DNA of 64,000 nucleotides from Syntrophorhabdaceae bacterium (GTDB taxonomy: Bacteria; Desulfobacterota; Syntrophorhabdia; Syntrophorhabdales; Syntrophorhabdaceae). The position numbers and the translations under genes are program-made. Location of the stretch: positions 4,416,001-4,480,000 of the forward strand of contig OY762209.1 in NCBI GenBank assembly GCA_963665295.1. Reading direction: 5' to 3'. The notes beneath the pieces were generated by a model, which was not told the DNA's origin, made no database searches, and saw nothing but the letters and a program-made list of their open reading frames with translations. Shown here piece by piece: positions 32,939 to 35,294 of the stretch; the first letter of the stretch is position 1; each line of letters opens with the position of its first letter.

Positions 32939-33125
32939 AATCAGCCCTCCGGCCCGGCCTTCCCGGACCGAGGCTTGCTCGATGGAGGCGCGGATACGCC
33001 CTGCCGTGATGTGGCATAATTTTCCTCAGTAGGAATTATTTTCCCATATAGACCCATATACGGCTCTGTGGCCCAGGGACCGATCCCCGTGAAATCATGT
33101 GATTATGTGCGCCCCCGGCAGCTTA

Positions 33126-33141
33126 CGGCATAGGGGTTGCA
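33126..33141 (+). promoter_or_regulatory. Sigma-54 -24/-12 promoter
   Basis: CGGCAT-AGGGG-TTGCA, exact GG-N10-GC spacing. Confidence 0.75.
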
Positions 33142-33212
33142 ACAAATCACGGTTGGAAGGGGCGAGCCAAGACCTACCTCTATCAAACTTCAATCGTTGA
33201 AAGGAGGTCAGT

Positions 33213-33956
33213 ATGATCAGCAGCATCGGCAGCAACAGCAGTTCACTCTATGAGTACCTAATGCAGTTGAGGGCGTCCGGTTCATCAACGTCATCAACGT
33301 CATCCACATCAACGACGGACGATCTTTTCAGCAAGATCGATACGAGCGGAGACGGGACGGTAAGCGAAGACGAGTTCAACACGTTCCGGTCGGAAATGGA
33401 AGCCCAGTTTAAGAACTCCGTAATGACATCGAAGTACGATTCCACGGGAGCCGCCACCTCAACCGACGATCTTTTCAGTAAGGTCGACTCGGACGGGGAC
33501 GGCACGGTAAGCGAAGACGAGTTCGGTATGTTCCGGTCGGCCATGGAATCCCACGGAGCTCCTCCTCCACCGCCGCCGCCGGACTCTTCGGCCTCATCCT
33601 CGTCAAGTTCGTCCATCGACGACCTTTTCGGCAAGATCGATACGGATGGGGACGGCACGGTAAGCGAGGACGAGTTCGGCACCTTCCTCGCCGGCATGGA
33701 GGCTGCAATTGAAAACGTCCTGCTTCAGGGTCAGGACAGTACAAGCATCGATTCCGACACATCCGTCGGCAGCACCGCCGAAGCCGCTTCGTCGGCAACA
33801 AGCGTCAGTACGGCCGCAACAGATTCAACGTCGGACCAGACGGACGGCGCAAGCCTTTTCGCGTCCCTTATTATGGAAGCAATAACCAAGTATATGACCT
33901 TCTCGCAGCCGCAGCAGGGTTCAACGTCTACAGGTCAGATAAGTGTAGCGGCTTAA
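33213..33956 (+). CDS. Ser/Thr-rich EF-hand calcium-binding protein (three EF-hand loops)
   Basis: DTSGDGTVSEDE, DSDGDGTVSEDE, DTDGDGTVSEDE; poly-Pro linker; AGGAGG SD. Confidence 0.88.
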   Translation: MISSIGSNSSSLYEYLMQLRASGSSTSSTSSTSTTDDLFSKIDTSGDGTVSEDEFNTFRSEMEAQFKNSVMTSKYDSTGAATSTDDLFSKVDSDGDGTVSEDEFGMFRSAMESHGAPPPPPPPDSSASSSSSSSIDDLFGKIDTDGDGTVSEDEFGTFLAGMEAAIENVLLQGQDSTSIDSDTSVGSTAEAASSATSVSTAATDSTSDQTDGASLFASLIMEAITKYMTFSQPQQGSTSTGQISVAA

Positions 33957-34001
33957 TGAATTATGCATCTTTTGAGAGAGGAGCATCCCGTCCCGGCAAT
34001 C

Positions 34002-34080
34002 GGGAGTGAGCAAGGCTTCATCTCTCGTATCAGAATCACCTGGCGTGGCATAGAGACTTGAGGTGGACCGGCTCGCCCCC
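34002..34080 (+). repeat. Structured repeat copy 1 (candidate ncRNA hairpin)
   Basis: Shares TCAGAATCACCTGGCGTGGCAT-N4-ACTTGAGGTGGACCGG-Y-TCGCCCCC with copy 2; ends are self-complementary. Confidence 0.8.
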
Positions 34081-34298
34081 CAAACCTCCTTGAAACGCCG
34101 CCTTTCCCCATCGTCGACCTCCCGTATCCGGATTGCGTAAAGAATTGAAGGGCATCTTTGCTCAGTCATTCATCCCGCCGCGACGCCTCGGCGATCACCT
34201 TCCCAAATTTTCGCAGAAAAGGGCAATTCCGTATTTCATCCCGGTATTCACGATCGGTTGTAACCTTTAGGGGATTCTTCGCGACTATGTAGCAAGAA

Positions 34299-34375
34299 GG
34301 GGGCGATCGCTTCACTCTCCTGTGTCAGAATCACCTGGCGTGGCATCTGGACTTGAGGTGGACCGGTTCGCCCCC
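34299..34375 (+). repeat. Structured repeat copy 2 (candidate ncRNA hairpin)
   Basis: GGGGGCGA...TCGCCCCC closing stem; same core as copy 1. Confidence 0.8.
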
Positions 34376-34577
34376 AAAATTACCGTGACAGCTTCGTCTT
34401 ACCACAGTATACCATAATGCCCGTCTTTCGTTCACAAATATTCGCATCGATCGTAAATAACGATGGGGCGCATACAAAACAAGGACCGCGGCAGCACGAC
34501 CGGACCGTTCTCCACCGATCCTCCCCCGGAAAAGAAGGATTGCCCGGGTATGGGCGACGCCGTCCCGGAGGGTGACG

Positions 34578-35294
34578 TTACTCCTTTTCCACGGGAAAAG
34601 TCAGACTCGCGCCAAACCACCCGATGACCGAGACCATAGCGGACAAGGAAAATACCAGTATGAGGTAGATTCCGCTCGAAAACCTCAGGTCCAGAAGAAT
34701 ATCGGGGACTGCGACGCGCCACACAAGGACGACAATGTTGACACCCAGGAGGGCCATTGAAAGCCGTTGTTTGATGGCTACGGGTCTCATGGGCCTTGCC
34801 CTATAGTTGAGCCACCATGTGTAGTAGCCTGTGGCCATAGCTACGGGAGTGAAGGCAAGCCCTGCCCCGAGGCAATTCAAAGCTGTCACTTCGAAACCCG
34901 GGACACGGGTGAACAGGAAAAGTAAAGTAAACAGGCCGGCGGAAAACATAAACACGATGGGGAAGTGGACCGTCATGGGGTGCGGATGACGTTTCAATAC
35001 GGGATATTGCCTAAGCAGTCTTGACAGCGAAGGGGGGACCTGTCTCTCACTTTCCTGTCCCTTTTTCAAAGTGCCCACTTGCGGGTACCGATCGAGCATC
35101 TCAGGCCCGTGGGGAGCCGCGGAAATGTCCGCGGTCAGGTCAGCGCCCCCATGGTGACGCTGCATATGGAAACCACCGGTCCACAGACGGCTGCCACTCA
35201 CGTCAAAGACCCTATTCCCGTGGGCCACGTACACAGGCTTTCCGTTCTTACCGTCGGCTTCCGCAAGCTCCTCAGGAGTGATTTCTTTCATCAA
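34578..35294 (-). CDS. Cytochrome b5-like domain fused to a DUF2231-like membrane domain
   Basis: DGKNG.PVYVA...VFDVS.S.LW.GG.H...H..G.DLT...APHG; HP..VHFP. Confidence 0.82.
   Translation of the reverse strand: MMKEITPEELAEADGKNGKPVYVAHGNRVFDVSGSRLWTGGFHMQRHHGGADLTADISAAPHGPEMLDRYPQVGTLKKGQESERQVPPSLSRLLRQYPVLKRHPHPMTVHFPIVFMFSAGLFTLLFLFTRVPGFEVTALNCLGAGLAFTPVAMATGYYTWWLNYRARPMRPVAIKQRLSMALLGVNIVVLVWRVAVPDILLDLRFSSGIYLILVFSLSAMVSVIGWFGASLTFPVEKE

Follow-up and report, generated by a model that had tools for sequence, protein, structure and literature searches.

The window, that is, the whole stretch of 64,000 nucleotides of Syntrophorhabdaceae DNA analysed here, contains a gene for an EF-hand calcium-binding protein and, convergent with it, a gene for a membrane protein on the opposite strand. 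The intergenic stretch of ~620 nt between these two genes holds both copies of a hairpin element, and the features on which our analysis draws are the following.

33032-33044, no strand: inverted repeat GGAA-N5-TTCC, recognised by eye, ~95 nt upstream of the sigma-54-type promoter
33126-33141, + strand: sigma-54-type promoter CGGCATAGGGGTTGCA, with GG/GC at -24/-12 spacing
33159-33168, + strand: 5'UTR box GGGGCGAGCC, complement of the hairpin 3' arm
33171-33180, + strand: anti-Shine-Dalgarno (anti-SD) stretch GACCUACCUC, following the box
33200-33209, + strand: AAAGGAGGUC, Shine-Dalgarno (SD) region of the EF-hand gene and predicted partner of the leader anti-SD
33213-33956, + strand: gene for the EF-hand calcium-binding protein, 247 aa (Pfam)
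34002-34081, + strand: hairpin copy 1, termed a-type (69 bits, E 5e-12, covariance model R1)
Within copy 1, + strand: helix P1 of the fold, GGGAGUGAGC / GCUCGCCCCC
Within copy 1, + strand: helix P2 of the fold, UUCAUCUC / GAGGUGGA
34030-34051 and 34325-34346, + strand: 22-nt core TCAGAATCACCTGGCGTGGCAT, identical in both copies
34060-34081, + strand: 3' arm of copy 1, GAGGUGGACCGGCUCGCCCCCC, near-invariant
34084-34097, + strand: ACCUCCUUGAAACG, directly 3' of copy 1, complementary to the EF-hand SD region at 33195-33208
34299-34376, + strand: hairpin copy 2 (93.3 bits, the top score in the family)
34406-34437, - strand: promoter-like site aimed at copy 2, TTGTGA (34437-34432), 20-nt spacer, TGg-TATACT (34414-34406), recognised by eye
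34578-35294, - strand: gene for a Cyt-b5/DUF2231 membrane protein (Pfam)

Copy 1 begins 45-47 nt past the EF-hand stop codon, and copy 2, its tandem duplicate, lies 295 nt further downstream. A preliminary description of this DNA had reported two copies with an identical 22-nt core, a near-identical 3' arm and differing 5' arms, which our comparison confirms: the element measures ~77-80 nt, an alignment of the copies that spans about 73-105 nt gives 84% identity, and their 3' halves are nearly identical while the 5' arms differ. The core is the apical region (ACC-UGGCGU-GG(C/U)), a conserved part of copy 1, and it occurs exactly twice, with no third occurrence even at three mismatches and none in 100 dinucleotide shuffles. 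Both copies fold into a single long hairpin, with energies on the + strand of -32.5 kcal/mol (z -1.81) for copy 1 and -39.1 kcal/mol (z -3.41) for copy 2, compared with -27.6 kcal/mol (z -0.49) and -34.3 kcal/mol (z -3.33) on the - strand, so that these two copies fold better on the + strand.

The motif had been described as unrecognised, and it has stayed so in our searches. Rfam 15 returned no match in the whole window at gathering thresholds, and with permissive filters only mir-193 (13.9 bits against a threshold of 55) and Yar_3 (9.9 against 50) appeared in 33900-34600, both at chance level with E values of 5.6 and 8.3, respectively. ARAGORN found no tRNA or tmRNA gene in 33800-34700, which rejects that identity. 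Likewise, a dispersed repeat of the REP or MITE type is rejected, since the genome of 5,508,164 bases holds these two tandem copies and no other, and 11 relatives hold one or two per genome. An intrinsic + strand terminator of the EF-hand gene was considered and dismissed as well, given that no terminator-like site occurs in 33800-34700; the + strand tails after the hairpin are A-rich (e.g., CAAAC, AAAAUU).

As regards the distribution of the element, BLAST against 60 relatives gave matches in four additional genomes. The preliminary description had proposed a covariance-model search of related genomes, and such a search, with a model (R1) of eight sequences whose structure was hand-written from single-sequence folds, yielded 15 matches in 12 of the 96 genomes of the order, this genome counted; the class comprises the same 96 genomes. 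Leaving this genome out, R1 matched in 9 of 22 genomes of family f3 and 2 of 68 of family f1, and none of 146 sampled genomes from the remainder of the phylum had an R1 match. A metagenome scan delivered 21 stretches, of which nine were true copies, nearly all resembling that of genome G053 (76-89 bits), one was rejected as a chance match within a coding region (L161, 24.6 bits) and the other 11 had no model match. A loose pattern scan of genome contigs produced 120 stretches, mostly from high-GC genomes, and was discarded: among 100 of these loci re-scored with the model none was real, the best reaching 22.5 bits (E 0.045). A second model, R2, adds the diverged copy of genome G030, which was already in the R2 training set, and a weak candidate match in genome G059 (L185:1501-1573; 29.8 bits, E 0.017), where P1 and the GUAUCUGGACUUGG stretch fit, the apical part differs and no EF-hand gene was seen upstream.

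Selection on RNA structure, suggested earlier from the two copies, finds support in the family. In an alignment of 19 sequences, 83% of the cells are paired compared with 36-48% for slid partners, double-sided changes occur at 8 of 25 pairs (a count reached by 2 of 500 shuffles) and the covariation score is 0.171 versus 0.137 (reached by none of 500 shuffles), figures that are favoured by the fitting of this alignment to the model structure. Pairing amounts to 87% of the cells in P1, 89% in P2, 93% in the apical 3-bp stem and 56-74% in the weak helix P3. The copies had also been called covarying, a claim that two copies alone cannot carry and that holds modestly for the family. The conservation is asymmetric: the 3' half (ACCUGGCRUGGUAUCU..ACUUGAGGYGGACCGGCUCGCCCC) is nearly invariant, and the arm complementary to the EF-hand leader described below lies within this invariant part, whereas the opposite arm drifts and pairs with it largely through U-G. 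Overall, the element is genuine, it is new, and its distribution is narrow.

The strand cannot be read from the wobble pairs, given the near-equal pairing across the whole family on the two strands (303 of 368 cells on + versus 296 of 368 on -). The proposal that G-U pairs favour the plus strand thus applies to the folds of the two window copies and fails for the family as a whole. P2 favours the + strand (100 of 113 cells paired versus 75 of 113 on -), P1, P3 and P4 favour the - strand by wobble-compatible cells, and the folding energy is lower on the - strand in 11 of 16 sequences, the + strand being lower in copy 1, copy 2 and three further copies, the inverted b-type copies introduced below. 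From one sequencing run, two RNA contigs were found (151 nt; 33313-33453 and 33619-33769), both within the EF-hand coding region.

The genomic context of the element is fixed. At 11 of 11 a-type loci the hairpin begins 45-52 nt past a stop codon on the same strand, nine of nine upstream genes tested in relatives encode EF-hand proteins, and gene order and orientation are identical at all loci. In three of 11 relatives (G015a, G055 and G079) a canonical + strand terminator, consisting of a GC-rich stem and a T-run, was recognised by eye 3' of the hairpin, which places the hairpin inside the mRNA there; most relatives and the window have no obvious + strand terminator after the hairpin, a point that we count against the interpretation proposed below.

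Upstream of the EF-hand gene, the sigma-54-type call at 33126-33141 corresponds to 9 of 12 positions of what we take to be the consensus, the EF-hand promoters of relatives reaching 10-12 of 12. A second match, to a looser sigma-54 pattern, lies within the EF-hand coding region of the window and is probably due to chance. The inverted repeat GGAA-N5-TTCC stands ~95 nt upstream of the promoter in all four loci inspected, including those of genomes G049, G015 and G055, and is a candidate enhancer site for a sigma-54 activator.

The leader between promoter and start codon provides the link to the hairpin. All 13 leaders examined behind sigma-54-type promoters follow the same plan, namely GGGGCGAGC(C), 3-7 nt, (G)ACCU(A)CCUC, ~9 nt and the SD AAGGAGGU, and the box together with the anti-SD is nearly the reverse complement of the hairpin 3' arm, whose GAGGUGG resembles a Shine-Dalgarno sequence. 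When leaders are folded, the ACCU..CCU stretch pairs with the SD in most of them and the box stays unpaired. In the window, 33159-33168 and 34070-34079 (the latter within the 3' arm) are 100% complementary over 10 nt, and each of the 13 a-type combinations of leader and hairpin compared can form 9-10 of the 10 base pairs, with four G-U pairs and one A-C mismatch among them. The diverged pair of G030 carries a compensatory C-G to U-A change in this box-arm helix; the strong conservation of box and arm alike leaves this one genome as the source of direct covariation between the two.

Box and hairpin also occur and disappear together: both are missing from G015-3, G077a, the second paralogue of the window genome and a third subfamily, no a-type hairpin without a box was found, and in G020 and G071 a diverged box, judged by eye, accompanies a diverged hairpin. 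The element, taken earlier for a free-standing RNA, is thus tied to the 3' end of the EF-hand gene that it follows, and it and the leader of this gene make up a complementary pair.

Co-folding placed the box-arm helix in the minimum-energy dimer for 12 of 15 leader/hairpin pairs, with a gain of -1.3 to -15.6 kcal/mol, a gain equalled by the best of 30 shuffled leaders in five of those 12; the other three pairs showed no interaction. A genome-wide duplex scan with the 3' arm gave many GC-rich matches and was uninformative, the leader not being among the best 40. A conserved target of the apical loop in the EF-hand mRNA was sought in 11 genomes, where the best sites fell at unrelated positions. 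Directly after copy 1 of the window, 34084-34097 is complementary to 33195-33208 at 12 of 14 positions, 8 bp of which form a perfect core, and 11 of 300 shuffles did equally well. An anti-SD stretch after the hairpin was nevertheless rejected as a general rule, being nominal in only 2 of 12 pairs, copy 1 (11/300 shuffles) and G093 (2/300), and similar CU-rich stretches follow the hairpin in some relatives only.

A sister EF-hand subfamily (N-terminus MISSIS..MRQQMFSKIDTNGDGKHD) is found in genomes without the 77-nt hairpin (L166, L169, L170, L172, L173, L174 and L175 in G077b, G066, G029, G089, G005, G087 and G051, respectively). Here, a search extended only through G-T (G-U) imperfections revealed, in 6 of 10 genes, a contiguous helix of 10-15 bp that joins the 5'UTR (-36 to -47) to the 3'UTR (+18 to +34, in one case +97). 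Between genomes its sequence changes on both sides, giving CGGCCAGC/GCUGGCCG, CGACCAGC/GCUGGUCG and CGGCCGGUUC/GAACUGGCCG, the last of which keeps one G-U pair; G051 has a 15-bp version, and in G089 the both-sided change was noted by eye. Shuffles as good numbered 13, 1, 0, 2, 0 and 0 of 200 for the six genes. In G063 and G076 only 6-nt runs are left in the same places, and G062 and G069 have no 5'UTR/3'UTR helix beyond shuffles. At the loci inspected, the 3'UTR element of the sister subfamily lies upstream of + strand terminators. Unconstrained duplex energies were no better than those of shuffles in four of seven genes, which again counts against the interpretation below; judged by its sequence changes, the sister helix is the strongest comparative support for sense-strand pairing of the mRNA ends in this gene family.

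Considering the position of the element, the terminators behind it in three relatives, the leader box, the box-arm pairing, the co-occurrence of both partners, the sister helix, the asymmetric conservation, the folds and the co-folds, we tentatively read the element, with a confidence approaching even, as a masked 3'UTR element that would pair with the 5' leader of its own, sigma-54-controlled EF-hand mRNA. The 3' arm, GAGGUGG-ACC-GGCUCGCCCC, is the complement of the leader box GGGGCGAGCC together with the anti-SD ACCUACCUC. Folded by itself, the leader is predicted to engage its ribosome-binding site with the anti-SD, and in the hairpin, the 3' arm would be masked by the variable, wobble-rich 5' arm, which resembles a weakened leader box. 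On leaving this weak partner, the 3' arm could form 9-10 bp with the leader box and ~7 bp with the anti-SD, a pairing that would join both ends of the mRNA or, alternatively, act in trans through a released 3'UTR fragment. Ribosome access, mRNA stability or both might be altered as a consequence, in either direction, i.e., activation or repression, and both the invariant apical loop and an opposite-strand RNA are candidate inputs for freeing the arm.

A broader proposal, which we regard as conceivable and hold only loosely, is that EF-hand mRNAs of the class are controlled by a conserved 5'-3'UTR pairing whose partner is caged, in one subfamily, in the ~77-nt hairpin, and that this hairpin would be opened or blocked by a loop-binding factor or a convergent antisense RNA. 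Copy 2, which has no EF-hand gene of its own, counts against the masked-partner interpretation.

The most serious competitor, in our view rather unlikely as a full account and still worth weighing in detail, is a functional RNA transcribed from the opposite strand, either a small RNA or a cis-antisense RNA, that would start 34-84 nt beyond the hairpin and read into it. Its conserved 5' arm, GGGGGCGAGCCGGUCCACCUC, would copy the EF-hand leader box and anti-SD, and it might mimic the leader, pair in antisense with the 3'UTR or work as a small RNA of the anti-SD kind, with the b-type copies as sigma-54-driven paralogues. Of 12 a-type loci, 10 carry on the opposite strand, 11-84 nt beyond the hairpin, a sigma-70-like promoter (TTGnnn, 16-18 nt, nATwnT) that points into it; none of the 12 has one on the + strand, and shuffles give an expectation of 0.49. 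However, the two exceptions among the 12 are the window copies, neither of which has a canonical opposite-strand promoter; the site at copy 2 has non-canonical spacing and a TG-extended -10.

The b-type copies (G049b, G050 and G015b) are inverted and stand upstream of an EF-hand gene, and in all three a near-consensus sigma-54 promoter, AGGCAYGNNAATTGCT, ~20-35 nt away, reads the reverse complement in the direction of the gene; in G055 the same promoter occurs without the hairpin and reads an unrelated GC-rich stem. For the window, a sigma-54-dependent small RNA was rejected, as no such promoter adjoins either copy and the only convincing sigma-54 promoter near the element is the one upstream of the EF-hand gene.

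The folding energies of the majority of sequences and the wobble-compatible cells of P1, P3 and P4, given above, also speak for the opposite strand, as does a moderately U-rich sequence that follows the hairpin, judged by eye, in ~5 of 16 copies when the - strand is read and in none when the + strand is read. Against it, the U-G pairs of P2 become C-A mismatches on the - strand, + terminators lie between promoter and hairpin in three relatives, so that the mRNA includes the hairpin there, the sister helix is a sense-strand feature, and a mimic would require a further factor that binds the box. Based on the two kinds of promoter, an RNA with the reverse complement, copying the leader box, is very likely made in relatives, and it may be the effector itself, may regulate the 3'UTR element or may do both. 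Neither the opposite-strand promoters nor the b-type sigma-54 promoters are explained by 5'-3'UTR pairing; the two proposals are compatible, the opposite-strand RNA being an added layer.

Quite improbable, to our judgement, is a plain 3' stem-loop that protects against exonucleases or marks a processing site without leader contact, the match to the leader being a relic of duplication. The stable GC-rich basal helix and its fixed distance behind the stop codon would suit such a role, and the resemblance of the 5' arm to the leader box is consistent with an origin by duplication, but a stem-loop of this kind has no need for a near-invariant arm and loop of 45 nt across genera while the other arm drifts. 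Nor does it account for a box conserved in 13 of 13 leaders without a cis partner, for the joint loss of box and hairpin or for the change of box and arm together in G030.

Much less credible still is a feature acting at the DNA level, i.e., inverted repeats around the EF-hand gene on which a recombinase would act, as in an invertible or mobile cassette, or palindromes that bind a protein. Box and arm do form a perfect 10-bp inverted repeat around the gene, and the G049 gene is flanked by whole hairpins in inverted orientation; yet most imperfections in the box-arm and sister helices are sense-strand G-T pairs, as expected of pairing RNA (the sister search extended only through these), the constant gene order and orientation at all loci speaks against inversion, DNA contigs of three runs contain no inversion joint here, no recombinase is present among the neighbours scanned and the genome holds only two copies.

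A small protein-coding gene overlapping the hairpin is extremely improbable, even though some substitutions look synonymous in two + frames and an ATG after the EF-hand stop opens frames of ~31 aa ending in ITW(R/H)GI at several loci, since in six frames of 15 sequences none was open with a consistent start and stop on either strand and the close relatives G093 and G053 differ in frame integrity.

Returning to the masked 3'UTR element, its predicted mode of action can be set beside described systems. The small RNAs DsrA and RprA pair with the anti-SD strand of the rpoS leader and free a hidden SD, an anti-antisense activation. The EF-hand leader resembles this arrangement in that a leader hairpin is predicted to hide the SD and an RNA pairing with the anti-SD could free it, but here the putative activator lies in the 3'UTR of the same mRNA and is itself masked; moreover, co-folding of the window leader with copy 1 suggests that the freed 5' arm of the hairpin might re-capture the SD.

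Two reported cases join the ends of one mRNA. In the icaR mRNA of Staphylococcus aureus, as outlined in PMC3868564, a UCCCCUG motif of the 3'UTR pairs with the SD and creates an RNase III substrate. Similarly, the prediction here is that a 3'UTR segment pairs with the region of its own mRNA where translation starts, and ACCUCCUU, right after copy 1 of the window, could pair with the SD itself; in contrast to icaR as outlined there, the main conserved complement is the box plus anti-SD, which precede the SD, a conserved SD-like hairpin masks the 3' partner, and the support is comparative, across genera. In the hbs mRNA of Bacillus subtilis, a 14-bp 5'/3'-UTR helix modulates leader cleavage by RNase Y, according to the account in PMC5737220. 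This long-range helix is of similar length to that of the sister subfamily (10-15 bp), while in the present case the partner segment forms part of a larger conserved hairpin.

Both cases are marked by segments of the 5'UTR and the 3'UTR of a single gene that complement each other, and such segments were found here. The element stands apart from both, as these sources portray them, through a partner that is SD-like and masked, a target located 5' of the SD, its sigma-54 context and the promoter on the antisense strand. The Qrr1-5 RNAs of Vibrio are described as sigma-54-dependent small RNAs (10.1101/2021.07.01.450815), and the b-type copies of relatives, directly behind near-consensus sigma-54 promoters, recall this arrangement; compared with what that source conveys, the element shares neither sequence nor structure with Qrr RNAs, has no Rfam match and, in its window copies, has no adjoining sigma-54 promoter.

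Contact between mRNA ends in bacteria is known from very few single-species cases, each established by experiment, and our literature search yielded only single cases of the icaR and hbs type; a search combining sigma-54, EF-hand and small RNA brought nothing relevant among the matches listed. At the present locus, such a contact can be inferred from comparison, i.e., from two subfamilies, several genera, compensating changes and the joint loss of partners, and the locus adds an unusual masked design, a conserved antisense promoter and exact candidate bases (33159-33168 versus 34070-34079). If the broader proposal of a caged partner opened or blocked by a further factor is correct, this would be a three-part RNA switch on a sigma-54 gene and, to our knowledge, the first bacterial 5'-3'UTR interaction with phylogenetic covariation across genera. 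Should the masked-partner reading hold, pairing of a 3'UTR with its leader would be an evolvable, heritable regulatory module in bacteria rather than a curiosity, and a first handle on the regulation of these sigma-54-controlled calcium-binding proteins would be at hand.

Several further observations concern the EF-hand genes and their surroundings. A second sigma-54 promoter, again of the form AGGCAYGNNAATTGCT, lies ~400 nt upstream of the EF-hand promoter in relatives and reads the inverted hairpin in three genomes (L132:1463-1478, L142:1460-1475 and L006:1460-1475; the site in G055 is at L137:130-145). The second EF-hand paralogue of the window genome, located outside the window (L177, C1:4610800-4613300), lies behind a consensus sigma-54 promoter, and its leader contains a perfect 13-bp hairpin, GACCGGGGCGCCG / CGGCGCCGGGGUC; the box and the 3' hairpin are both absent. 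At the sister loci L173, L174 and L175, the promoter carries TTGCA at -12 and AG in place of GG at -24, and the upstream regions contain direct repeats, TGTAAAG-N4-TGTAAAG (or CTTTACA on the other strand), which may be binding sites of a regulator.

In G062, G063, G076 and G069 (L167, L168, L179 and L182), all of one genus, each EF-hand tblastn match includes one in-frame TGA, which could separate two neighbouring genes, disrupt a single one or be a stop codon that is recoded. Finally, the EF-hand coding region of the window contains, at 33294-33706, three direct repeats of ~113 nt that are 72-77% identical and 147-153 nt apart; these are presumably the EF-hand modules, and they probably explain the joint described as 'goes back 141' in an RNA contig.
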